Part shown: positions 45,485 to 57,732 of the stretch, piece by piece
Layout: each line of letters opens with the position of its first letter
Position numbering within the stretch: the stretch's first letter is position 1
Origin: an uncultured Acidobacteriota bacterium
GTDB lineage: Bacteria > Acidobacteriota > Thermoanaerobaculia > UBA5066
DNA length: 64,000 nt
Assembly (NCBI GenBank): GCA_963779415.1
Contig: CAVZYA010000001.1
Location: 480,001 to 544,000 of the forward strand
Reading direction: 5' to 3'
Notes under the pieces: model-generated
The model's input: the letters and a program-made list of their open reading frames with translations, nothing else
What the model was told of the DNA's origin: nothing
Databases searched by the model: none
Position numbers and translations under genes: made by a program

Positions 45485-46872
45485 TGGCCGGCGAGATCAG
45501 ACCCAAGAGTGCGGGCGAGCTGCATGAGATGCGGGCGCCCTACGAGGAGTTCTGCCGGAAGGCCTTCGATCCCGGCAACGAGCACTCGAAGCCCGAGTCG
45601 CTGAAGGGGATCCGGTGGCTCTCCTGCACGATGTACATCTTCACGCCCCACTCGGCCGCGAACCTGGCCGAGCTGGGCGCCGAGGTGATCAAGATCGAGA
45701 TCCCCCGGATGGGCGACGCCATGCGGCACACCTCGCCCTTCAACGAGGCGTACCTCTATCCCCTCCACGACACCCGGCCGGGGACGGGAACCGGGTTCGG
45801 GTTCACGAACGCCAACCCGAACAAGCACTTCATCTCCCTCGACTATCACGTACCGGAGATGCGGGAAGTTTTCTACAACATGGTCCGGCAGAGCGACGGG
45901 CTGACCGAGCTCTACCGTCCCGGGACCTTTGACCGCTGGAAGATGAGCTACCCGACCCTCGCGCAGATCAACCCGCGGTTCATCTACGTCTGGGGCGGCG
46001 GGTTCGGCTACGGGCCGAAGGTCTTCGGGGGCTCCTATGACATCCTCGCGCAGTCCCACGCCGGGTTCGCGTCCATCACCGGAATGCACGACTTCATGGG
46101 CGGCCACTGCTCCAAGTCATCCAACTGGGTCATGGACTGGGCCTCCGGCACCCTGATCACGTTCGGGATCCTCGCCTCCATTCTCTGGCGCCGGAAGACC
46201 GGCCTCGGCACCATGATCGAGTTCTCGCAGGTGCAGACCTCCACGATGTTCACCGAGTATGCCGTTCCTCTTTACGGCCGGTTCGGCATCGTCCGGCAGC
46301 GGTGGGGAAACTGGGACACCCAGCTCTGCGCCCACGGGATCATCCTTTGCGGCAAATCCGACTTCCCCGATGCCCAAAACCCGCAGGACAAGTTTGACGC
46401 CCGGTACGTCATGGTCTCCGCCTTCCAGGATGCGGACTTCAAGGAACTCTGCAACGTCGTCGGCCGGAAAGACATCTACGATAAATACAAAACGCACAAG
46501 GACCGGCTCGACCCCCGGGCCCAGGTCGACATCTACCAGGCGCTCGAGAAATGGGCCGGAGACAAGACCCGGGCGGCGGTGGTCAAGGTCCTGACCGACG
46601 CCGGCATCCTCGCCTCCCCCGTCATGAACGACCGGGAAGTCTACGAGTACGAGCACTACCGCGAGCGGGGCACCGTCCGCTGGATCGACGACCCCCTCTT
46701 CGGCGACTTCCTCCTGCAGGCCGGCTACAGCGCCGGCCACCTGGCCAAGACCCCGAGAAGGACGAACTGGATCTGGCGGCCCGTTGGCGCCGACAATGTC
46801 AAGATCTACCGGGATCTGCTCGGCTATCCACTGAGCAAGATCGAGGAGTGGTATGGCAAGGCCTACATCTAA
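45484..46872 (+). CDS. Family III (CaiB/BaiF) CoA-transferase, subunit 2
   Basis: [35 protein letters not shown]...[14 protein letters not shown] overlap with the previous gene. Confidence 0.88.
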
Positions 46873-46886
46873 AAGGAGGCAGCGCC

Positions 46887-47372
46887 GTGTGTGACATCAT
46901 CTGGTGCAAGAAGCAGGTTTCCGGCAAGACGTGCAACACCGTCAATTACCTGGACCCGTACAACTTCTGGAACTGGGAAGGCAAGGTGAACTGCGCCGAG
47001 TGCGGGACCGTCTACGCCATCCACATGATCCAGGGCTTCATGTACAAGGGGCCAACGGAGAAACCCGGAGAGAAGCCCGACATGAGTCCCCTCTACGCCG
47101 ACAAGCCGCTGGAGGGCTACCGGTGTTACCTTCCCGGGATCGAGGGCAGGACGAGGCCTTGGCAGTGCCTCCCCCGACATATCTACCTCGGCCACGCGGA
47201 CACGGTGAAGTGGAGCCTCCGCGGAAGACCCGTGCGTGGCTGGCGTCCTCAGCCGAAGTCTGCAGGCATCGCTGGAAGCTTCGGCCACAAGTGGGATATC
47301 GAGAAACTCTCACCGGAGATCTGGGCCGAATACCAGGAGAAGCTGAAGAGCGGGAAGCTGAAGGACTGGTGA
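46887..47372 (+). CDS. Hypothetical 161-aa protein with N-terminal zinc-ribbon-like Cys motifs
   Basis: RBS AAGGAGG then GTG. MCDIIWCKK...TCNT...NCAECGTVY. Corresponds to the C-terminal part of ORF 46551..47372. Confidence 0.75.
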   Translation: MCDIIWCKKQVSGKTCNTVNYLDPYNFWNWEGKVNCAECGTVYAIHMIQGFMYKGPTEKPGEKPDMSPLYADKPLEGYRCYLPGIEGRTRPWQCLPRHIYLGHADTVKWSLRGRPVRGWRPQPKSAGIAGSFGHKWDIEKLSPEIWAEYQEKLKSGKLKDW

Positions 47373-47394
47373 GACATTCAGAAAGGAGCGCCAC

Positions 47395-47655
47395 ATGGCC
47401 GAGGGAAAACAGTTAACGCCTGAAGAATTCCTGGCTACGGTTCTCGTGCCGCAGTATGGCCGGGAAAGCGGGCACATGTGCTGGGATTGCAAGCACTTCA
47501 AACCGGTTCTGAAGGGCTCCAAGTTCCCGCCCACCGACACGATCGGCTGGTGCACGCAGATCCACTGGCCCTTCTACTGGTGCGTGACGGACTTCAACGT
47601 CGTCAAGAAGTGCTACGCCTTCGAGAAGGGCATTTACACCTTCAAGAAGTTCTGA
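47395..47655 (+). CDS. Small Cys-rich protein, BssB/BssC-like putative Fe-S subunit
   Basis: RBS AAGGAG. C-x2-C-x20-C-x9-C-x9-C: CWDCKHF...IGWC...YWC...KKCYAFEKG. Confidence 0.6.
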   Translation: MAEGKQLTPEEFLATVLVPQYGRESGHMCWDCKHFKPVLKGSKFPPTDTIGWCTQIHWPFYWCVTDFNVVKKCYAFEKGIYTFKKF

Positions 47656-47656
47656 C

Positions 47657-47950
47657 ATGGAGGAGAACGTCCGGAAGGAGCTGGATACGCTCACGGGGAT
47701 GGTGCTGACCTGGAAGAAGGACTATCTCGGGTCGGTATCATCCGATGAGGACTGCGAGTACCTCGCTCGGGAATTCCTGGACGAGGTGGAGACCCACGTC
47801 TACCCCTACGTGAGGAGGCTCATGGAATGCAATTTCCTCACGGGACCGGAGGCGACGGAGTTTCTCGACTCCTGCTATCGCCAGGCAGAGGAGCTGAACA
47901 AAGCCATCCAGCAGCCGGACGCCAAACAGGGTGAAACGATAGGAGGGTAA
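47657..47950 (+). CDS. Hypothetical acidic alpha-helical protein (97 aa)
   Basis: 1-nt gap after the previous stop, natural composition, in operon. Confidence 0.7.
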   Translation: MEENVRKELDTLTGMVLTWKKDYLGSVSSDEDCEYLAREFLDEVETHVYPYVRRLMECNFLTGPEATEFLDSCYRQAEELNKAIQQPDAKQGETIGG

Positions 47951-47952
47951 AC

Positions 47953-48372
47953 ATGGCTGAGAAATGCCGAGTGGGGGTCTGCGGGTACGACCCCGTTCTG
48001 GTGAAGGGATACGTCAAGACAGGCGAGCGAGCCCTCTGGTGGCACCTGTCGGACGAGGTGTACGAACAATACCAGGTGAAGCCGGGTGACACCGTCACCG
48101 GGAAGATCCTGGCGGTTTACGACGGGACCGGCACGAAGACGGCCTCCCCGAACGAGCCCTTCGAGTGGAAGTGCCCGAAGGAGTCGGGCCTGGCGGTCCT
48201 CCTGCCGCCTGCGACCATCGTCAAGTTCAAGCTCTCCGCTTTCCATTTCCTCGAGCTGCTCGTGGAGAAGGTCGGCGGAAAGGACGTCTATCCCGGCAAG
48301 GAGCAGATGAGCTTGAAATGGTGGCCCGAAGAGAGGATGAAGCTCGACTACAAGGTGCCTTACATCGAGTAG
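47953..48372 (+). CDS. Hypothetical 139-aa protein, possible AbrB-like/cradle-loop barrel
   Basis: RBS AGGAGG. LSDEVYEQYQVKPGDTV and LPPATIVKFKL resemble swapped-hairpin repeats. Confidence 0.7.
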   Translation: MAEKCRVGVCGYDPVLVKGYVKTGERALWWHLSDEVYEQYQVKPGDTVTGKILAVYDGTGTKTASPNEPFEWKCPKESGLAVLLPPATIVKFKLSAFHFLELLVEKVGGKDVYPGKEQMSLKWWPEERMKLDYKVPYIE

Positions 48373-48466
48373 AACACAGGACGCTCTCTCCCCCGCTCCC
48401 TTGAAGCGCCGGTTCCGTTCGGACCGGCGGGCAAGGACCGGGCGGGGCGAAATCAGTCGCTCACGG

Positions 48467-48511
48467 CCCCCTCTCCTGGCCCTGAAGCACCAGGAGAGGG
48501 GGATTCTTTTT
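48467..48511 (+). terminator. Rho-independent terminator
   Basis: Perfect 13-bp stem CCCCCTCTCCTGG / CCAGGAGAGGGGG with a 10-nt loop, followed by ATTCTTTTT. Confidence 0.75.
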
Positions 48512-48566
48512 CATGTATCCTCGGCGATGGAACGGTGACATTCGATCGGAAGGGAGAATCGCGTAC

Positions 48567-48809
48567 ATGACAGAACACGACAAGCCGAATGAAGAGGGCT
48601 ACACGGCTCCGGCGTACGTCGACCCGGCGATGGGCGACAGCCCCCCCGTCGGAGGCCTGATTGACAACGAGGCCGTCTGCCGGGACTGCATGACCGCCGC
48701 CGAGGAAGTCAGCATGCGGCGCGGGTTTGTCGACCCCGTCTCCGAGCAGCAGGCCAAGGCGAAGGGGACCGTCTGCGCCCGGTGCGGCAAGAAACTCGTC
48801 GCCGCGTAG
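48567..48809 (+). CDS. Small zinc-finger protein (CRDC...CARC)
   Basis: RBS GGGAG, start MTEHDK, two CxxC pairs, 80 aa. Confidence 0.72.
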   Translation: MTEHDKPNEEGYTAPAYVDPAMGDSPPVGGLIDNEAVCRDCMTAAEEVSMRRGFVDPVSEQQAKAKGTVCARCGKKLVAA

Positions 48810-48852
48810 CGCCCCCTTCAATCCAGCCGGACGGGGCGGGCGGAATCACCTC

Positions 48853-49266
48853 ATGGCAGAGCCGGAAAAGGCCCCACGACGAGAGGTCGTCGAGCAGCTC
48901 CTGCCGCTCGTGGTGGAGTTGATTCCAGGGCAGGCGGCTGAAGGCCTGATCGAAGTGCTCGAGCCGGGCAGCTACGAGGCCCATTCCCTCCGGACGCTTT
49001 GCGAGAATCTCCTCAGGAGAACGAACTGGAGCGTGGAGGAGCAGCAGGTCCTGGAGGACATCAGGAGACAGCTCGACGGGGGCCGGCTCCTCTGCCGGGG
49101 CCGACCCGTCGACGGCCGGGCTCTGGATCTCGCGGTGGTCGAGGAAACCGAAGCAGGCGAGAAGTATCTCTATGTGCCTGTCCACGCCATCAGGCCGCAG
49201 GAAGGCGGAGGCGCGGCACCCCGGATCGCGCACCAAAGTTCAGCAGACGAGAGCAGGAGCCTATGA
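48853..49266 (+). CDS. Putative ubiquitin-like (beta-grasp) protein with GG motif and C-terminal extension
   Basis: Start MAEPEK. Helix SLRTLCENLL, strand RLLCRGRPVD, terminal strand YLYVPVHAIRPQEGG, then an 18-aa tail. Co-operonic with JAB, E1 and E2-like genes. Confidence 0.62.
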   Translation: MAEPEKAPRREVVEQLLPLVVELIPGQAAEGLIEVLEPGSYEAHSLRTLCENLLRRTNWSVEEQQVLEDIRRQLDGGRLLCRGRPVDGRALDLAVVEETEAGEKYLYVPVHAIRPQEGGGAAPRIAHQSSADESRSL

Positions 49267-49469
49267 GTTCCAGGTTCGTAGTCACGGAGAGCACCACGGT
49301 GGACGATGTTGCCGCGGCGGGCCGGCCCGACCCCCTCTACTGCAAACTCGGCCTGGGCCAGCAGGCCCGCGTCCTCGCGGACGAGATCGATGCCGCGCTT
49401 GGTGGGGATACGAGCTGCGGGGGCGCCGGACTCGGATATGTTCCGGACATCGTAGAGGTTGAAGAATAG
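49263..49469 (+). CDS. Hypothetical 68-aa acidic protein
   Basis: RBS AGGAG, ATGA overlap with the Ubl gene. MSSRFVVTEST...DIVEVEE. Confidence 0.6.
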   Translation: MSSRFVVTESTTVDDVAAAGRPDPLYCKLGLGQQARVLADEIDAALGGDTSCGGAGLGYVPDIVEVEE

Positions 49470-49482
49470 CCTGGAGAATCGC

Positions 49483-49677
49483 GTGGAGATAGAGGCTCCC
49501 AAGGACTGGGACCCGAAGTGCCCAAAGTGCCAGGAAGAGCTTCGACGAATGCTCGAGCTGTCACAGTCGGTCTACGAGGACCTCGACCACGGCGCGGGGT
49601 TGTACCGGTTGCCGTTGCCACCTTGCACGCACCATGCGGCGCAGGGCGAGCACAAAGACGCAGGAGGGGTCGCTTGA
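49483..49677 (+). CDS. Small putative zinc-binding protein (CPKC...CTH)
   Basis: GGAG RBS before GTG (alternative TTG start at 49459). CxxC plus CxH ligands. Confidence 0.6.
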   Translation: MEIEAPKDWDPKCPKCQEELRRMLELSQSVYEDLDHGAGLYRLPLPPCTHHAAQGEHKDAGGVA

Positions 49678-49717
49678 CAGACCCACTTGTGGCTTTCCGG
49701 CCGTCGGGCGCCCCGGC

Positions 49718-50929
49718 ATGATGGATCTGCTGGAGTCCGACCTGGAGCTCGTCGTCCGGTCAGGATTCATCTACCTGCCGCTCCTCTTTGATCCTTCGGT
49801 GGCGACGGAGATCGAGGGGAACGTGGGCAATCACCTGGTCGCCCGGGACGCCGGCAGGCATTTCGTTCGGACGATGAGCCTGCGATCGCTCGTTTCAAGC
49901 TACGAGGCTCTCTGGCCGAAGTCGTACGAGAAGTTGCGGCGGTCGAAGCTGTGCCGGTTCTCCGGGGACCTTTCGCCGGCCGAAACGGGCGCCAGCGAGC
50001 GGCTGAAGGAGATCCTCTTCTCCGTCATGCCGCACTTCGTCAGGAGGGGGAAGCGGCTCGACAGGAGGCGGCTGACCGAGGAGGACGTGCTGGACCTCAT
50101 CGAGGAGAGAACCGGACTTCCCGGCGGATACGCCATGGCTGCAGCCAGCGCTCGGGATCCGGGCTCCATCCGGCAGATCCTCGTGGAACTCGAGGAACGC
50201 CGCCCGGCGGCCGAGCCGCTGCCCGAGGGCCGAATGTCTGCGCGGACCCTCGCGGATTGGCTTCTGCGCGCCCAGGAAGCCCGGATTCTGGAAGAGGAGA
50301 GCCAGCGACTGACGGGGTTTCTCTCCGCGCAGGAGGGCCTCGATACGAGGGCGGCCAGGCGGCTGGCGATTTTGCGGTGCGTCGCGGAGAAGGGGACGTT
50401 GGAAATCGACGGATTCGGCTTTCTGAGGACAGGACCCGGCGACGACTACGTGATCTACAAGCGCACCGGCGAGTTCGCTCTCAAGGACTACTACGGTCGG
50501 CTCTATCTGTTTCCGGATTGCCGGGTTGCCGTGTCGACGGCCGCTGGCCTCAGGCCCTTCGTCGTGGAGACCTACAAGCATCCGTTTCTCGAGGCCCACG
50601 ACTCCGGCCAGGAGATCTGCCTGGGCCGCACCACGGCGCGCCGCTTCTCCGGAGCGGCGGCGATCGTCGAGGCTCTGCAGGAGGGAATCAACGCCCTGCT
50701 CCATGGCTACAGCAGCCGGCGCCGAAACGGGTACCACAGACTGGAGGGACTGTTGAGGTCGGTCCGGCTCCCTGGCCCGGACGATCCCGGCTACCCGGAA
50801 CCGCCGGACGACAGGCCCCGCTCCAAGCGGCACATCCTGGACGTCGACTTCGACGACTACCGCATCCCGGCCGATCACCCCGGGATCGTGTCGGGTCGGG
50901 TCGAGATCACCAACGACGTCGTGCCGTGA
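49718..50929 (+). CDS. Putative prokaryotic E2 (ubiquitin-conjugating-like) domain protein with helical N-terminus
   Basis: C-terminal beta-meander, then PFVVETYKHPFLEAHDSGQEICLG (His codon at 50579, Cys codon at 50618) followed by a helix, resembling the E2 HPN...ICL signature. Confidence 0.6.
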   Translation: MMDLLESDLELVVRSGFIYLPLLFDPSVATEIEGNVGNHLVARDAGRHFVRTMSLRSLVSSYEALWPKSYEKLRRSKLCRFSGDLSPAETGASERLKEILFSVMPHFVRRGKRLDRRRLTEEDVLDLIEERTGLPGGYAMAAASARDPGSIRQILVELEERRPAAEPLPEGRMSARTLADWLLRAQEARILEEESQRLTGFLSAQEGLDTRAARRLAILRCVAEKGTLEIDGFGFLRTGPGDDYVIYKRTGEFALKDYYGRLYLFPDCRVAVSTAAGLRPFVVETYKHPFLEAHDSGQEICLGRTTARRFSGAAAIVEALQEGINALLHGYSSRRRNGYHRLEGLLRSVRLPGPDDPGYPEPPDDRPRSKRHILDVDFDDYRIPADHPGIVSGRVEITNDVVP

Positions 50930-51402
50930 TGACGACGGACGACACCCTCTCGCGGGACGAGCCGCCCCGGGCGACGCCGGATCTGTTGCGGGACATAAGA
51001 ACCATGCGCGCCGGCAGGCGGCGGAAGGAGCCCTTTCGGACGAGCCTCTACTCCCGGGTCGGGGGTCTGGTGAGGCGATATGGCCTGGACGAGGCGTTCC
51101 TCCGGGCGCTCGACTCCCCGGGCGGCTTCTCCCGGGACGGCCGTCCGGATGCCGTCCGGCCGAAGGGGAAAGCGCCCTATGCTCCTCCCCTCTTTTTCCT
51201 TTCCACGGAGAGAGAGCACCGCGTGACGACGGTCATCCTGGAGAAAGTGAAGAGCCCGTTCCTCGCGTACGCCACGTCGCCCGACGAGATTCTCCTCTGC
51301 GAACGCCTGTTCCGTGAGGACCCGTCCCTTTCTCAGGAAACGCTCGCGTGCCATCATTTCGAGACGTTGATGCCGGCCGGAGCGGATTCCGGGCCGGGCT
51401 GA
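50929..51402 (+). CDS. Hypothetical 157-aa protein
   Basis: TGATG overlap with the E2-like gene, start MTTDDT. C-terminal part of ORF 49951..51402. Confidence 0.65.
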   Translation: MTTDDTLSRDEPPRATPDLLRDIRTMRAGRRRKEPFRTSLYSRVGGLVRRYGLDEAFLRALDSPGGFSRDGRPDAVRPKGKAPYAPPLFFLSTEREHRVTTVILEKVKSPFLAYATSPDEILLCERLFREDPSLSQETLACHHFETLMPAGADSGPG

Positions 51403-51417
51403 GGCGGGAGGAGAGTC

Positions 51418-52518
51418 GTGGAACGGATTTCGCCGCAACGCCGCCGGGAGATCGGGGAGAGAGTCGGCGCATTCCGCGAGAGCCAGGTCGGCGACGCCGT
51501 CAATCAGATTCTCGAGTTCGACAAGACGCCGGCCGACCTCAAGGCCTACATGGACCGGTTCGTCATCGGCCAGGAGCAGGGGAAGAAGATCATCTCCGTC
51601 GGCATCGCCTACCATTACCGGAGGCTCGCGGCGGCCCTCAGGCGCGCCGTCGTCGAGAACGGCGAGGAGCTGGGCGCCGCCTTGCACGGCGCGGCCACGC
51701 CGAAGGCCAACATCCTGATCGTGGGGCCCCCCGGCTGCGGGAAGACCTACACGGGCGAGGTCGCCTCCCGGCTCGTGGGGGTGCCGTTCGCCGTGGAGGA
51801 CCTGACGAAGTTCAGCGAAACGGGCTACGTGGGCCAGAACGTGAGCGACATCCTCCTGGACCTGCTGATCGCGGCCGGCGGCAACCCCCAGGTGGCCCAG
51901 ATGGGCATCGTCTACCTGGACGAGATCGACAAGATCGCCGCCGAGCCGATCGTCTCGAAGGACGTGTCGGGGCGCGGGGTCCAGAAGGGGCTCCTCAAGC
52001 TCGTCGAGGGGGCCGAGAACACCATCGACCTGGGCCAAGAACGGATCTCCCTTTCCACCCGACACGTCCTGTTCATCGCAGGAGGCGTGTTCGAGGGGCT
52101 GGAAGGAACCGTCGGAAAGCGGATGGAAAGGGATCGTCTCGAAGGCGAGTGGAAGGACCACCTCCTCACGGACGACTTCGTCGGCTGCGGGATGGAGCGG
52201 CAGCTCATGGGGAGGTTCCCCGTTCGGGCCGTCTACGACCCGCTCAGCGTCGAAGACCTCAAGAACATCCTGCTCGAGAGCGAGGAGAGTCCGTCCCGCG
52301 CCTACATCGACGACCTGAAGGCGTGGAACATCGAACTCCGGTTCACGGACGGCGCTCTCACGGAGGTCGCGAGGCGCGCGCAGCAGGATCGGACGGGCGC
52401 CCGGGGACTCATCGGCATCCTCCACAAGGTGCTTCTGGAGGACATGTACCGGCTTCCGGGCGTCCACACCGGCGAGCTGGTGGTGGACGAGAAGTACATC
52501 CGGGAGCGGCTCGGGTGA
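51418..52518 (+). CDS. ClpX-like AAA+ ATPase lacking the zinc-binding domain and IGF loop
   Basis: VIGQE, Walker A GPPGCGKT, pore loop GYVG, Walker B YLDEIDK, DVSG.GVQ..LLKL, GRFP, GARGL. Confidence 0.88.
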
Positions 52519-53321
52519 GATTCCGGGGGCTCTCGGAGCTGAAGCGCGCGCCATGCTTCGAGGCTCCCGTGGGAACCCTGCCGGAGTGGATCCGGATGAC
52601 GCGTCACTCCCTCGCGAAGGCCTTCAAGATCAACGAGCTCGTCCGGTCCGTCCACGGGGACAGCTACGAGTGGTACGGATTCACCGTCGCCGAGCGGAGC
52701 GATCCGGAGCTGGTCGTGGACGTTCTTCTTCCGGCCAACGACGAGAACTTCACGGACCACACCCGCGTCGCACCCGAGGCGATCGACGCGTCGAGAGAGT
52801 CCCTCCCCCGGGATCGGGTGATCAACGGCTGGATCCACTCCCACGGGGCCCTGCCGTACGAAGGGTTCTCCTTCGTGGACGAGAGGAACCAGGAGGCCGT
52901 GACCGATTACGTGAACACGCTTCTCAGGAAGCCGGTGGCCAAGAAGGAGATCCTGATCAGGGACCTCGCGATCCTCGTCGAGGGCCGCTTCTCGGAGAAG
53001 GAGCTGGAGCAGGGAAGCGTCGCGCTCATCACCGACGCCCCCGTCAAGGAGGCCCGGATCATCGAGACCATATACGGAAGCTTCTGCTTCGCCATCGTCA
53101 TCGGCGACGACGGCTGGCACAGGCAGCAGGTCCATTACCGCAGGCGGGGCATCCTTTCCGGGCAGACGACCGAGGAGAGCCGGGACACCGACATCGTCCT
53201 TTCGGGCGACGCGCGGCCGCTCACCGAGGCGGAGATCCAGATGCTGGCGGACGAGGTCCGCACCCGGATCCGGCCGGGCGTGGCCGTTCCACCCGAGCGG
53301 TTCGAGCGGGAGGCGACATAA
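52515..53321 (+). CDS. JAB/JAMM (MPN+) metallopeptidase
   Basis: GTGA overlap with the ATPase. Upstream Glu (YEWYGF) and GWIHSHG...FSFVD (HxH-x7-S-x2-D type motif). Confidence 0.82.
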
Positions 53322-53358
53322 GGTCGGCGGCGGCCTGGGGCGAAGGGACGCGATCGGC

Positions 53359-54636
53359 ATGGAGACGGGACCGGCTCGCGAGAAGGCGCATGACCCGAGG
53401 CTGGACCGCCAGCTCCGGATCCCGAACTGGAACCAGCGGGCCCTCGAGGAGGCGCGGCTCGCCGTCTTCGGCGACGACGACCTTCTCGCCTCGCTCTACG
53501 TCCTCTCCGCCGCGGCCCTCGGCGTGAACGACGTCGTCCTGATCGCGCCCGCCTGGAATGAGAAGCTGATCGAAATCGCCCGCCAGCTCAATCCGAGGCT
53601 CAGGCTGGCCCTCCTCGAGGGGCTCCACACCCACCCGGTCCTGGAGGAGCTCTTCAGGCCCTGCACGGCCATCGTGGACCTCACCCGCTACGCTCTGGCC
53701 AACAAGCTTCTGCTGGAGACGGGCTACCGGTCGGGAATTCCGGTGATCCGTGGGTTCTGCCTCGAGAAAGACGGGTGGGAAGGGCTCTCCGTCTTCACCT
53801 ACAGGCGCGGCCGGGAGTGGGAGGAGCTCCGGGAGCTCGTCTCGCCCTCCAATCTTCCCTGCGACCACTTCGACGACGCGATTCTGGCCCTCGTCGCGGC
53901 CGGCATCGCCCTGGAAGAAACCAAGAACGTCATCATGGGACACCGGGTGTCGGAGGAGCTGATCGGCTACAGGCGGCCGAAGGTGGTTCCCCTGGAGCCC
54001 GACTCCGGCGTCATCATCGTCGGCGCCGGCGCCCTGGGTAACTTCGTCGGGCTCGGACTGGCCTGTACGGGGCTCCGGCGAATCACGGTCGTCGATCCCG
54101 ACGTGGTGGACGTGACTAACCTCAACAGGCAGGTGCTCCTGGCCGGCGGCGTAGGCCGAAGCAAGGCCGAGGTCCTCTGCGAGCGCCTGCACTCCCTCTT
54201 CGGAATCCGGGCGGAGGCCCGGGTGGCTTATTTCCGGAAGGACTCCGAGCTCGACGCCTCCGACGCTGTCTTCGATTGCGTGGACAACTTCGAGACCCGG
54301 GTGATCCTGAGTGAGAGGTGCCGGGAAGAGGGAAAGGTGCTCATCAGCGGCGGCACGGGCCCTCAGGCCGGACAGGTCATCGTGTTCGATCCGGCGCGCC
54401 CGAGCGAAACGCCCGCGGAGGTTCTGGGACTCTACGAAATCGTCGAGAGGCGGGAGATCGACGCCTTCCGGAGGGAGACGGCGTCCTGCGCCTACCAGCC
54501 CGATCCGTCCGTCGTCATGACGAATCAGATTATCGGAGGATTGATGGCCGATTCCTATCGTAGGCTCCTGGCCGGAGAGGAGACCCCGAATATCTTCTAC
54601 GATTCGAGGAACGACGCCCGGATCTTCGGGGGGTGA
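53359..54636 (+). CDS. E1-like ThiF-family enzyme with tandem inactive and active adenylation domains
   Basis: N-domain RLDRQLRI...AVFGDDDLLA (degenerate nucleotide loop). C-domain IVGAGALG, DPDVVDVTNLNRQ, DCVDNF, candidate catalytic Cys in TASCAYQPDP. Confidence 0.88.
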   Translation: METGPAREKAHDPRLDRQLRIPNWNQRALEEARLAVFGDDDLLASLYVLSAAALGVNDVVLIAPAWNEKLIEIARQLNPRLRLALLEGLHTHPVLEELFRPCTAIVDLTRYALANKLLLETGYRSGIPVIRGFCLEKDGWEGLSVFTYRRGREWEELRELVSPSNLPCDHFDDAILALVAAGIALEETKNVIMGHRVSEELIGYRRPKVVPLEPDSGVIIVGAGALGNFVGLGLACTGLRRITVVDPDVVDVTNLNRQVLLAGGVGRSKAEVLCERLHSLFGIRAEARVAYFRKDSELDASDAVFDCVDNFETRVILSERCREEGKVLISGGTGPQAGQVIVFDPARPSETPAEVLGLYEIVERREIDAFRRETASCAYQPDPSVVMTNQIIGGLMADSYRRLLAGEETPNIFYDSRNDARIFGG

Positions 54637-54709
54637 TAGAGTCGCGGCGAATTGCGTCCTGACGTGATGCGACGGCGAAAGGCCGCGGATCAGGGCCGAA
54701 GGAGCCGAG

Positions 54710-55933
54710 ATGAGCAGCGAGAACGACGTCGCGCAGACTCAGGAGGACCAGCCGATCGGCTGGCAGCGCCTCGGCGACGTCCTGACACCGCCGATTCCCG
54801 GCTTCGAGGACCTCCTCTTCCTTCCGAGCCTCGACAATCAGTCCTCCAACATCTACGTCCTGCCGGGGGACTGCGTAACGATCGTGGACCCGGGGAACGA
54901 TTACACGGCCTTAATGGAGCTCTTCCCTGCGAGAGCCAGGCCCGAGGACGTCAGGAAGATCGTCCTGACGCACGGGCATTTCGACCACGCCATGGGGGCG
55001 CTCGAGTTCCTCAGGACGTATCCGGATCGCCCCACGGGCGCGCGCATCGAGCTGATCCTCCACGAAGGGGGTCCCGACCAGTTCAAGCAGACGGCGAGGG
55101 AGCAGGGCGCCTCCGTGACCGAGGTACGGGGCGGGGAGACTCTCGAGCTGAGCGGCCTTTCCTTCGACGTGATCTACACGCCAGGCCATACCATCGACGG
55201 CATCGCCCTCTATCACGCCCCCTCGAGGACCGTCTTCAGCGGCGACGTCGTGCTGCCGCTCGCGGTAGCCGGACCCGATCCCAAGGCCGGGGGAAGCCTG
55301 GACCAGTACCTGTTCGGGCTGAGGGCGTTGCTCGCGAGGGAGATCGAGAACGTCCTCCCGGGCCACGGCCCCGTCGTCGGCCCGGGCGGGAGGAAGGTCA
55401 TCGAGCAGACCTACGAGGCCGTCATGATGAAGCTCCTGGGGGTCGAGAAGCCGATCCCGTGGATCCAGGGTGCCATTCAGCTCGCGGAGCGCGGGCTGCT
55501 GGAAGAGGCCGTTTTCTGCGCCGGGAAAGAGCTGGCCCGCGACCCGGGGCACGCCAAGGCCCTCGAGCTCAAGGCCGTGTGCCTCAACGATCTCGGGCGG
55601 TCGTCTGAGGCCCTCGAGGTCCTGGATCGGCTGCAGGAGCTGCAGGCCGGCGACGATGCGTTCATCCACGTCGGCAGGGGATATGCCCTCATGGGGCTTG
55701 GCCAGTTCGAGGAGAGCGTCAAGTGCTTCGACGCCGCTCTCCGCATCACGCCGGGCCTGAGGGACGCGCTCGTCTACAAGGGGATGGCCCTCCATCTCTC
55801 GGGGAACCACGAGGAGGCCATGGACATCGAGCCCTTCAGGACGGAGTTCATGGGGCGGTTCCGGAGCGAGCTGCTCAAGGCGTCGCGGCCCGCCCCGAAG
55901 GATGGCCTCGCCGAAGGCACTGGAAAGGCCTGA
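54710..55933 (+). CDS. Metallo-beta-lactamase-fold hydrolase with C-terminal TPR repeats
   Basis: THGHFDH, TPGHT, SGD, PGHG metal ligands. TPR-like helices in the last ~150 aa. Confidence 0.88.
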   Translation: MSSENDVAQTQEDQPIGWQRLGDVLTPPIPGFEDLLFLPSLDNQSSNIYVLPGDCVTIVDPGNDYTALMELFPARARPEDVRKIVLTHGHFDHAMGALEFLRTYPDRPTGARIELILHEGGPDQFKQTAREQGASVTEVRGGETLELSGLSFDVIYTPGHTIDGIALYHAPSRTVFSGDVVLPLAVAGPDPKAGGSLDQYLFGLRALLAREIENVLPGHGPVVGPGGRKVIEQTYEAVMMKLLGVEKPIPWIQGAIQLAERGLLEEAVFCAGKELARDPGHAKALELKAVCLNDLGRSSEALEVLDRLQELQAGDDAFIHVGRGYALMGLGQFEESVKCFDAALRITPGLRDALVYKGMALHLSGNHEEAMDIEPFRTEFMGRFRSELLKASRPAPKDGLAEGTGKA

Positions 55934-56058
55934 AAAAAGACTTCGAGATCCCGGGGCCAAGGGATAGACTCGCTCGCGTTTCACCCCAGATTCCGACCGC
56001 GGCCCGCGTCGCCGGCCTCTCCCGGCGAGCCGGGCAAGAGACAGGAGGAGACGTCGCC

Positions 56059-57732
56059 GTGAGCACGATTCCCGAAAACTATCTTCCCCCGAAGGAGTTC
56101 CAACCCGAGCGGATCTACAAGCTGAAGGAGTTCGCGAGCTACCCGGATCCGCTGAACAGCACCGAGGAGCTACTCGACAAACAGATCGCCGCGGGCCGGG
56201 GCGACAGCCCGGCGGTCCTCTTTGCGGACAAGGTCCTGACCTACAAGCAGCTTCTGGGGGCGTCCTGCAAGATCGGGAACGCGCTCCGGAAGCTGGGGGT
56301 CGAGGAGTCGGACCGGGTGTTGCTCCGCTCTCCGAACGTTCCGCCCGCCCTCTTCACGAACTTCGGGGTCCTGAGGCTCGGGGCGGTCATCGTCCCGACC
56401 TCTCACATGCTCTCCCCCCCGGAGATCATCCACATCGCCAACAACGCCGAGGCGAAGGTGATCGTGGTGGCGTCCGCGTTCCTCGAAGGGGTCATCAAGG
56501 CGCGCCCGAACCTGAAGACCGTCAAGCACGTCATCGTCTTCGGCGGCCAGCCCGAGGAGCTGAAGAAGCAGGATCTTCTCTGCTACGAGGAGCTCGTCGC
56601 GAACGAGGCGCCGGCCTTCGCCCCGGTACGCCGTCCGCGCAAAGCCGTCGCCGTTCTTCTTTACACCTCGGGCACGACCGGCCTGCCGAAAGGGACGGTC
56701 CACTACCAGGAAGAGGCCCTGATCGTTCCGGACACCTTCGGCAAGTACGGATGGAACGTCCAGCCGGAAGACATCATCTGCGGACCCGCGCCCATCTCGC
56801 TGGCCGGCGGATACTCGACCGTGGCGACGATCCCCTTCCGGTTCGGCGCCGCGGCCTCCCTGATTCCCAAATTCACGCCGGACGGGCTCTTCGAGACGGT
56901 CCAGAATCACAAGGTGACGATCCTGAGCGCCCTCCCCACGGCGTACCGCAAGATGCTCGAGGTTCCCGGCGCGGAGAAGAAATACAACCTCTCCACCCTC
57001 CGCGTCCTGACCGGTGGCGGTGAATCGCTGACCGCAAAAACCTACAACGACTGGAAGGGGCGCTTCGGCCAGGAGATCTACGAGGGGCTCGGCACGTCGG
57101 AGATGATGTACGTCTTCGTCTCGAGCGTGGTGACGCGGAAAGTCAAGCCCGGCGCGATCGGCACCGCCGTCCCCGGTTACGAGATCCAGGTCATCACCGA
57201 GGAGGGAAAGGTCGCCAAGCCCGGAGAGCTGGGCCGGCTTTACGCCCGCGGGCCGACGGGGACGCTCTACTGGCGCCCGTACGAGGACGGCGGCAGCATG
57301 CTGGAGAAGCAGAAAGCCGTCATCCGCGAGGGGTGGGTGCTCGTCGGGGACTTCTGCACGATAGACGACGACGGGTACCTCAGCTTCGTGTCGCGCCAGG
57401 AGGACCTGATCAAGAGCTCCGGCTACCGGATCGGACCCGAGGAGGTCGAGGACGCTCTTCTCAAGCACCCGGCCGTGGCGGACGCCGGCGTGATCGGGGT
57501 TCCGGACCCCGTCCGGGGCCACAACGTCAAGGCCTTCGTCCTCCTGAGGCCCGGACAGACGCCGAGCGACGAGCTGAAGCAGCAGATCATCGACAGTTGC
57601 CGAGATCACATCGCGATCTACAAGCTTCCCCGCATCATCGAATTCACGAGCGAACTCCCGCGCACCCTCCAGGGGAAGCTCCTCCGGCGGGTTCTGCGGG
57701 ACAAGGACAAGGGGGCGGCTCCCGCGAGCTAG
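56059..57732 (+). CDS. AMP-forming acyl-CoA ligase (benzoate/2-aminobenzoate-CoA ligase-like subfamily)
   Basis: RBS AGGAG + GTG. YTSGTTGLPKG, EGLGTSE, GD, SR.EDLIKSSGYRI.P.EVE, LPRT..GKL.R. Confidence 0.88.
   Translation: MSTIPENYLPPKEFQPERIYKLKEFASYPDPLNSTEELLDKQIAAGRGDSPAVLFADKVLTYKQLLGASCKIGNALRKLGVEESDRVLLRSPNVPPALFTNFGVLRLGAVIVPTSHMLSPPEIIHIANNAEAKVIVVASAFLEGVIKARPNLKTVKHVIVFGGQPEELKKQDLLCYEELVANEAPAFAPVRRPRKAVAVLLYTSGTTGLPKGTVHYQEEALIVPDTFGKYGWNVQPEDIICGPAPISLAGGYSTVATIPFRFGAAASLIPKFTPDGLFETVQNHKVTILSALPTAYRKMLEVPGAEKKYNLSTLRVLTGGGESLTAKTYNDWKGRFGQEIYEGLGTSEMMYVFVSSVVTRKVKPGAIGTAVPGYEIQVITEEGKVAKPGELGRLYARGPTGTLYWRPYEDGGSMLEKQKAVIREGWVLVGDFCTIDDDGYLSFVSRQEDLIKSSGYRIGPEEVEDALLKHPAVADAGVIGVPDPVRGHNVKAFVLLRPGQTPSDELKQQIIDSCRDHIAIYKLPRIIEFTSELPRTLQGKLLRRVLRDKDKGAAPAS

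Follow-up and report, generated by a model that had tools for sequence, protein, structure and literature searches.

A ClpX-like ATPase without the ClpP-docking loop in a putative ubiquitin-like conjugation operon of bacteria and DPANN archaea

Binding of ClpX, the AAA+ unfoldase of ClpXP, to ClpP requires the IGF loop of ClpX. In prokaryotes, tag-dependent unfoldases are to our knowledge limited to Mpa with Pup and to archaeal PAN or Cdc48 with SAMP or ubiquitin-like tags, and the prokaryotic operons for E1, E2, a ubiquitin-like protein (Ubl) and a JAB peptidase that we know to have been studied experimentally (Bil, Bub and CBASS Cap2/Cap3) are all devoid of an ATPase. Here we describe an operon of this type that has one, in a stretch of 64,000 nucleotides (the window) from an uncultured Acidobacteriota bacterium (contig CAVZYA010000001.1 of assembly GCA_963779415.1, forward-strand positions 480,001 to 544,000). 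The conserved cluster encodes a GG-ended modifier, an E2-like protein, a 156-residue protein, a ClpX-like ATPase, a JAMM (JAB) peptidase and an E1. The ATPase gene (51418..52518, on the + strand, as are its motifs and the other five genes) specifies 366 amino acids from a GTG start with GGGAGGAGAG upstream. With moderate confidence, we propose that its product, of the ClpX lineage, forms a hexameric AAA+ unfoldase that is independent of ClpP and dedicated to the Ubl conjugation pathway encoded around it.

In its composition the cluster resembles the Rpt1-6 ring with Rpn11 in the 19S particle, and archaeal PAN or Cdc48 with a JAMM protein, where an AAA+ unfoldase, an MPN/JAMM isopeptidase, a GG-ended modifier, an E1 and an E2-like protein are also found together. 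However, Rpt, PAN and Cdc48 are classical AAA proteins, whereas the protein described here is of the ClpX lineage, with no OB ring or HbYX-type C-terminus seen; no 20S partner is encoded near its gene, and the coupling seen here between ATPase and JAMM is genetic. Cdc48/p97 with Ufd1-Npl4 and deubiquitinases would be alike in function since, as is generally known, it is an unfoldase or segregase for ubiquitin-tagged proteins that is not fixed to a protease, but it is a classical AAA protein that has two rings and uses N-domain cofactors, and its homology to the ClpX-like protein is limited to the AAA+ core. Bil (BilABCD), Bub and type II CBASS Cap2/Cap3 share with the cluster an E1, an E2 or E2-like protein, a GG-ended modifier and a peptidase, which is a JAB protein in Bil and CBASS, all within a single operon of sparse distribution, and differ from it in the missing ATPase. 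Mpa (ARC) of actinobacteria is, as is also common knowledge, an AAA+ unfoldase that reads a small protein tag, Pup, via N-terminal helices, and an N-terminal helix is present here too; Pup is, however, disordered and ligated by PafA instead of E1 and E2, and Mpa docks on the 20S particle and belongs to another ATPase lineage.

The resemblance of the 51418..52518 product to ClpX is far above chance level. Pfam recognizes AAA_2, AAA and the ClpB_D2-small lid, and the two NCBIfam ClpX equivalogs are the best matches (E 1.4e-76 for the ClpX match), at scores below the cut-offs: 258.1 against 359 bits for TIGR00382 and 235.3 against 370.75 bits for NF003745. Residues 37-361 align end to end with solved ClpX chains (E 2e-56). 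The AlphaFold2 (AF2) model has a pLDDT of 87.2 and a pTM of 0.85, and all matches listed by Foldseek for it are ClpX (TM-score 0.68-0.80, 31-37% identity). As in ClpX of ClpXP (TIGR00382 / NF003745; PDB 4i34, 6wsg), the fold comprises a large and a small AAA+ domain and all motor motifs are there; Walker A and B, sensor-2, the arginine finger and an aromatic pore-1 loop also place the protein in the wider ClpX/HslU type. HslU is likewise a ClpX-related single-ring AAA+ unfoldase without IGF loop and zinc domain, but the present protein has no I-domain and reaches only 152.4 bits, in three pieces, with the NCBIfam HslU model (cut-off 362.45).

An earlier note, made from the letters of this DNA, had described the translocation motor as intact, and this was borne out: all its elements align with the solved ClpX chains and are invariant in an alignment of 19 family sequences with identity down to 34%. 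Walker A (GPPGCGKT, residues 103-110; 51724..51747) keeps G103, G106, G108, K109 and T110, and Walker B (IVYLDEID; 51907..51930) keeps D168 and E169. Both pore loops are invariant throughout, pore-1 as G136, Y137, V138 and G139 (GYVG, residues 136-139; 51823..51834) and pore-2 as D182, V183, S184 and G185 (DVSG, residues 182-185; 51961..51972). The arginine finger R266 (52213..52215) is aligned to the 'IGRLPV' segment of ClpX and is invariant together with G265, and in sensor-2 (GARGL, residues 327-331; 52396..52410) this holds for G327, A328 and R329.

In the aligned sequences the motor residues are strictly conserved from bacteria to archaea, and all accessory elements specific to ClpX have been removed or replaced. 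The N-terminal C4 zinc domain is absent, as had been claimed before: residues 1-37 contain no cysteine, the alignment begins at about residue 66 of ClpX chain 8e91_A (424 amino acids), and C..C motifs occur in none of the 18 cluster rows. The N-terminus lies about 48 residues later than that of the genome's own ClpX, whose zinc domain reads CSFC...CDEC, and the protein begins roughly at ClpX residue 30 of delta-N constructs. The zinc-binding domain is replaced by a helix (residues 6-32; 51433..51513), modelled over residues 6-32 at a pLDDT of 56-73, with the conserved consensus R.RI.EK...LRE.Q..EAV..I.EF. A second family-specific element is a helical insert 5' of Walker A (residues ~71-97; 51628..51708; AF2 helices 53-81 and 85-91); it is 28 residues long, whereas the own ClpX has 17 residues there and most canonical rows have 10-26.

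The RKH loop is reduced to a stump (residues 198-214; 52009..52059), in which a deletion of 7 residues leaves a tight beta-hairpin. The stretch has 17 residues, compared to 24 in the own ClpX, with modelled strands at 200-204 and 209-213, and the site reads IDLGQERI where PDB ClpX has GGRKHPQQEF and the own ClpX GGRKHPHQEF. The earlier note had placed a helical insert at this position, which does not hold, since the RKH stretch is merely 7 residues shorter and modelled as a hairpin; the real helical insert is the one before Walker A. At the IGF site, the absence of IGF/LGF from residues 225-245 was correctly noted, and the deletion is apparent against both PDB ClpX and the own ClpX. The remaining stump (residues 223-253; 52084..52176) has no [ILM]GF tripeptide and carries a conserved tryptophan, W245. 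From G223 to D253 it spans 31 residues, compared to 44 in the own ClpX; the deletion amounts to 13-15 residues and appears as a 14+1-residue gap relative to the solved ClpX chain. The counterparts of the site are 'GSGIGFGATV' in the PDB chain and 'KSMGFGAK' in the own ClpX. The tryptophan is kept by 17/17 proteins of the cluster and by 10 of the 13 IGF-less relatives outside it. The C-termini end in ...YVRERLG in bacteria and in ...ARLKK, ...EKLGKR or ...RRLQNE in archaea. In comparison with ClpX, the protein thus lacks the C4 zinc domain and the RKH and IGF loops, has an extra helical insert before Walker A, and is never encoded beside clpP.

The protein is not the sole ClpX of its genome. 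A canonical ClpX is encoded on contig C2 (635.7 bits, above the NCBIfam cut-off) with clpP, the single ClpP match of the genome, directly upstream, and hslU, also outside the window, adjoins the single proteasome/HslV-family match on the same contig; a separate clpPX, which the earlier note had suggested looking for, is therefore present together with hslVU, and the window itself holds neither clpP nor hslV, as stated there. In the flanks that were fetched, clpP was found at none of 18 ClpX-like loci versus 8 of 9 canonical clpX loci. Phylogeny against ClpX and HslU was the other check proposed. From a set of 192 sequences of at least 330 amino acids (the window protein, 17 from fetched loci, the own ClpX, 25 from other loci, representatives and 4 HslU), a tree of 69 rows was built, with 18 cluster members, 13 other IGF-less proteins, 14 long proteins without zinc domain but with IGF, 17 canonical ClpX, 3 long rows labelled 'eukaryote-like' without a taxon record, and 4 HslU, the HslU of the unpublished genome G006 being omitted. 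As the tree is a quick IQ-TREE search with SH-aLRT support only, rooted on HslU, its deep branches should be read with some caution. In it, the housekeeping ClpX proteins form a clade of 20 rows (support 99) that does not include the ClpX-like protein. All rows without zinc domain form the sister clade of canonical ClpX (support 96), inside which lies the IGF-less branch (28 rows, support 99) with the core cluster clade nested in it (16 rows, support 97); the HslU rows form the outgroup on a branch of length 1.03. The branch without zinc domain, with or without IGF, is currently annotated automatically as 'ClpX' or 'AAA family ATPase', and the family studied here comprises more than 120 clusters at 90% identity with a full length of about 367 amino acids.

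Other members of this part of the tree may be mentioned. A second, large ClpX-like family of ~500-600 amino acids (L025-L086, for example L025:8001-9038, L033 and L049; P0137, P0143, P0165) comes from records with labels such as Myxococcota, Acidobacteriota, Verrucomicrobiota, Leptospira and Omnitrophota. Its members are devoid of a zinc domain, carry an insert of 30-36 residues at the RKH site and a C-terminal extension of ~120-260 amino acids, and keep the IGF-type tripeptide; in the tree they form the sister group of the IGF-less branch (support 91/96), with clpP in the flanks of 0 of 16 loci. P0121 (1238 amino acids), the top-scoring representative with 406 bits over three stretches, consists of three tandem ClpX-like AAA+ modules without IGF-type loops. 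A Woesearchaeota protein of 522 amino acids (L024:7410-8978 and P0127) has a 200-residue N-terminal extension and a deeper deletion, of 16 residues, at the IGF site; its locus, the only one of a divergent relative with context, has no E1, JAB or Ubl genes nearby. A metagenome scan with the distant IGF-less relative P0129 gave only one weak locus.

The surroundings of the gene were compared by a locus scan with one genome per species, which returned 80 loci; 527 of 600 candidate stretches encode a relative. Identity of the ClpX-like protein is 52-84% at 17 loci (L007-L023), 43% at L024 and at most 42% at the rest. The neighbouring proteins of the window were searched by tblastn on the 18 loci L007-L024. 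The JAMM gene lies directly downstream in 16 of 18, the gene for the 403-residue E2-like protein is present in 15, the modifier and the 156-residue protein in 13 each, and E1 in 12 plus one fragment. JAMM is absent at L021, where the locus ends inside the ATPase gene, and at L024, and most other misses are at contig ends. The hosts include Desulfobacterota-type metagenome-assembled genomes; their labels read Desulfobacterales, Syntrophobacteraceae, Desulfarculales, Binatia and others, and three are DPANN archaea (Woesearchaeota, Aenigmatarchaeota, Nanoarchaeota). Across bacteria and archaea the operon is rare, with a patchy distribution. Within the window's order an orthologue of the ATPase occurs in 2 of 121 genomes, the own genome and G111 (84% identity), which make 2 of the 7 of the genus, whereas canonical ClpX (38-43% identity) occurs in 99 of the same 121; this denominator includes the unpublished genomes G006 and G018, both of which lack the ClpX-like gene and the JAMM gene. 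Of 301 genomes in the phylum to which one of the archaeal hosts belongs, only that host has the ATPase gene.

The JAMM/MPN peptidase (52515..53321, 268 amino acids) is encoded in close linkage with the ATPase. Its GTG start at 52515 overlaps the stop codon of the ClpX-like gene (GTGA; TGA at 52516-52518), and when the window is taken together with 16 loci, the start overlaps that stop by 4 nucleotides (-3 position) in 15 of 17, the other two lying at most 7 nucleotides away; the translational coupling claimed in the earlier note is in this way conserved. Starting at GTG 52515 adds a conserved N-terminal extension of 27 residues beginning MRFKSLSxLKR. The two genes are found, adjacent, in the same 2 of the 121 genomes of the order and are both absent from the other 119 (JAMM by profile). 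The motif E...HxH...S..D is invariant in 17/17 sequences (E52, H108, S109, H110, S119, D122). For the AF2 model (pLDDT 86.2), the best Foldseek matches are CSN6, Rpn8/Rpn11, BRCC36, a Caldiarchaeum Rpn11 homologue and PfJAMM1 (E 1e-5 to 1e-3), and nearly all those listed are MPN-domain proteins or complexes containing such proteins. Judged from this model and the motif, the JAMM protein adopts a genuine MPN fold, and its metal site is intact. By sequence it gave no Pfam JAB or Prok-JAB match at E 0.01, a reference Prok-JAB searched in the own genome gave a sub-threshold match only, and profile searches of PDB sequences with the JAMM, modifier and 156-residue families returned nothing usable. 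Prediction of a complex between a ClpX-like monomer and the JAMM protein scored 0.00 in both runs and is uninformative, as a ring-binding partner might not be caught with a monomer.

The candidate Ubl (48853..49266, 137 amino acids) has a C-terminus ...KPQEGG followed by a variable tail. The sequence PQEGG (P115, Q116, E117, G118, G119) is invariant in 14/14 modifiers, the window protein and 13 homologues with identities of 45-66%, and 0-17 variable residues come after it, as is characteristic of a Ubl whose C-terminus has to be trimmed. The E2-like protein (49718..50929, 403 amino acids from the start MMDLLESD) has H288, P289 and C301 invariant in 12/12. The ATG of the next gene (50929..51402) overlaps its stop by one base; the product, of 156/157 amino acids and no known family, had no match in Pfam, NCBIfam or PADLOC, an unconvincing best PDB match (ribosomal protein L20, E 0.0015) and no usable Atlas match, and in the Woesearchaeota locus L017 its slot is occupied by a 402-residue protein with a similar basic N-terminus. 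The modifier, E2-like and JAMM proteins also had no model match in these three collections. The E1-like adenylating enzyme (53359..54636, 425 amino acids) has a ThiF domain at residues 216-411 (Pfam E 1.7e-35); all NCBIfam matches of ThiF/MoeB type are below their cut-offs, with a weak match to '6A-MBL cap2_3', and PADLOC gives only a generic 'E1-E2'. Its C-terminal 'IFGG' was considered as a fused tag and rejected, as it is not conserved (the protein of L007 ends in IFV). In the complete chromosome of G126 the cluster is split, with modifier, ATPase and JAMM at ~2.12 Mb and E2-like, 156-residue and E1 genes at ~2.867 Mb, ~750 kb apart, which suggests two functional modules.

Several side observations concern the operon. 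A small cysteine-rich protein with two CxxC pairs, encoded upstream of the modifier in the window (48513..48809) and between JAMM and E1 in L009 (2236-2466), may be an occasional extra member. In two Syntrophobacteraceae loci an Amidoligase_2 gene lies just 3' of the JAMM gene (L014:10603-12412, L012:4835-5881), followed in L014 by a class-II glutamine amidotransferase; these may represent another module, for peptide tagging or ligation. Directly 5' of the modifier gene, the Woesearchaeota locus encodes a receiver-domain protein (response regulator; L017:4557-5096). One in-frame TAG each was seen in the E1 of G126 (L099, G126:C1:2868317-2869558) and in the E2-like gene of G127 (L101, G127:C16:259-1380), where sequencing error, decay or read-through could be responsible. 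A promoter and terminator scan of 48300-56100 gave 0 promoter-like sites and 1 terminator-like site, within E1, fewer than in shuffled sequences, and is uninformative; a search of sequencing runs for 48800-54700 listed no RNA run, and DNA shares were at most 0.17.

The operon belongs to a segment of the window, 46.7-56.0 kb, that has no counterpart in the 99%-complete genome G003 of the same genus, although both sides match. The segment (46700..56000) holds four small genes, the Ubl operon and an MBL-fold/TPR gene (54710..55933), with a GC content of 0.61-0.67 compared to 0.68-0.72 in the first 30 kb. In G003 the CoA-transferase genes match at 65-72% and are almost directly followed by the AMP-ligase gene. 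The MBL-TPR gene was considered as a member of the Ubl operon and rejected, being absent from most loci; its protein occurs in 1 of 5 genomes of the genus. At L008 (L008:502-1683) it is located 5' of the modifier and immediately follows the CoA-transferase small genes, at L012 it lies beside those genes (L012:9183-10322), and at both L012 and L018 it is on the opposite strand. Since it adjoins those small genes at L008 and L012, it probably belongs to a CoA-transferase operon that the Ubl operon interrupts in the window. Of 104 open reading frames predicted in the flanks of 11 loci, the 42 nearest the operon were scanned against Pfam, and these are ordinary genes (MlaE, kinases, FKBP, SOD, TatC, Slp, a CysS fusion).

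The earlier suggestion of a protease-independent unfoldase coupled to the JAB peptidase is favoured by the genome, tree and gene-neighbourhood results; the hexamer, the unfolding activity, the recognition of the Ubl, the contact with the JAMM protein and the fate of the substrate are what we infer. In the model, E1 would adenylate the GG-ended modifier, and the E2-like protein, possibly aided by the 156-residue protein, would pass it to target proteins. With its GYVG pore loops, the ClpX-like ring would then grip either the tagged protein or the modifier itself and, driven by ATP, unfold, extract or remodel it. Translational coupling would supply the JAMM protein and the ring in a fixed ratio, and JAMM would trim the C-terminal tail of the modifier and strip the modifier from substrates at the ring, a scheme that parallels Rpn11 on the proteasomal ATPase ring. 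As no peptidase chamber would be attached, the outcome would be unfolding or disassembly, not degradation. More tentatively, and as a view that we hold possible but doubtful, the system might amount to a proteasome cap without a proteasome in bacteria and DPANN archaea: a ClpX-lineage unfoldase complexed with an Rpn11-like JAMM protein and acting on proteins tagged by the E1, E2-like protein and Ubl, in which zinc domain, ClpP-docking loop and RKH loop were traded for the N-terminal helix, the helical insert and the tryptophan-bearing stump. A ubiquitin-unfoldase-deubiquitinase logic that we know only from the 19S particle and Cdc48 would then have arisen independently in another AAA+ lineage, as part of an operon that moves between both prokaryotic domains.

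Several points weigh against a ClpP-independent unfoldase of a Ubl pathway. The modifier was unrecognised by sequence searches (best PDB match E 0.075; best Atlas score 0.81), and the E2 label of the 403-residue protein draws on a sequence motif, a short invariant His-Pro...Cys. Absence of clpP from the flanks carries no information on binding in trans. No ClpP match was obtained in the four archaeal genomes that carry a clade member, but these are metagenome-assembled genomes of 0.6-1.7 Mb whose completeness is not established, which makes the missing ClpP weak evidence. Moreover, 20S proteasome genes are present in 4/4 archaeal hosts and HslV in the own genome, so a protease partner bound via a non-canonical interface is possible, and the conserved tryptophan of the IGF stump could belong to a new docking surface. 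A different account, in our opinion an unlikely one, is as follows: the protein would be the substrate-delivery ATPase of Ubl-dependent degradation, feeding ClpP or HslV in bacteria and the 20S particle in archaea via such an interface, which could involve the stump or the 156-residue protein, or via another operon protein. Every examined host has at least one chambered peptidase, the own genome having both ClpP and HslV; the stump is not random, given its tryptophan, and the nearest sister group retains an IGF-type tripeptide; and by analogy with the 26S proteasome, as is generally known, the combination of Ubl, AAA+ ring and JAMM ends in degradation. However, the loop required in ClpX for binding to ClpP is deleted, the C-terminus is not the hydrophobic-Tyr-X end that proteasome activators are known to use, genes for ClpP-family peptidases are missing from all 18 flanks, and a single partner would have to suit both bacteria and archaea, whose chambered peptidases differ.

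It is somewhat less probable that the protein acts as a chaperone on the conjugation side, presenting targets, disassembling modifier oligomers or recycling stalled E1/E2-like intermediates, with JAMM mainly maturing the tail of the modifier. The tail of 0-17 residues after GG has indeed to go before the modifier can be activated, and in the split chromosome of G126 the modifier gene accompanies the ClpX-like and JAMM genes and not those of E1 and the E2-like protein. In other bacterial operon families, Ubls form homodimers and larger assemblies (PMC11601603). Nevertheless, three bacterial Ubl operon families with a solved pathway operate without an ATPase, and trimming of a tail by itself requires no motor with fully conserved pore loops.

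Quite improbable, in turn, is a role of the entire operon as a mobile conflict or anti-phage system, with the ClpX-like protein as the effector that unfolds Ubl-tagged phage proteins. The patchy, cross-domain spread would agree with it, from the low counts in order, genus and archaeal phylum to the 52-54% identity between bacteria and DPANN, as would the absence of the 46.7-56.0 kb segment from the same-genus genome; other bacterial E1/E2/JAB operons are antiviral according to published reports. But PADLOC gives the ClpX-like protein only weak P-loop matches and E1 only the generic ones, defence hallmarks (nuclease, integrase, restriction, other) occur in none of the 42 scanned flanking reading frames, and conservation of the ATPase (52-84%) and the modifier (45-66%) is unusually high for defence. 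Finally, a decaying, functionless ClpX duplicate, which the loss of three ClpX-specific elements and the scores below the curated cut-offs might suggest, deserves almost no credence and is already contradicted by conservation: no catalytic or pore residue varies among the bacterial and archaeal sequences, the more than 120 clusters keep full length, and the frame is intact with start and JAMM coupling conserved.

No paper on a ClpX-like ATPase in a prokaryotic Ubl operon, or on an IGF-less ClpX family, was found in the literature open to full-text search, to which subscription journals and supplements do not belong. The terms 'ClpX' and 'AAA+' do not occur in Iyer et al. 2006 (PMC1779556), nor do 'AAA', 'ATPase', 'unfold' or 'ClpX' in the 2023 Bil preprint and the 2024 Ubl-structure preprint (PMC11601603). 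If the proposed role is true, this would be the first case of bacterial Ubl tagging read out by a dedicated unfoldase, and it would mean that the ClpX scaffold can be freed from ClpP. With six genes, the system is small enough for laboratory expression, where the cooperation between an AAA+ ring and a JAMM isopeptidase, and the origin of the ubiquitin-proteasome logic, could be approached. The analysis also defines a sizeable, hitherto unannotated branch of the ClpX family without zinc domain, with or without the IGF loop.

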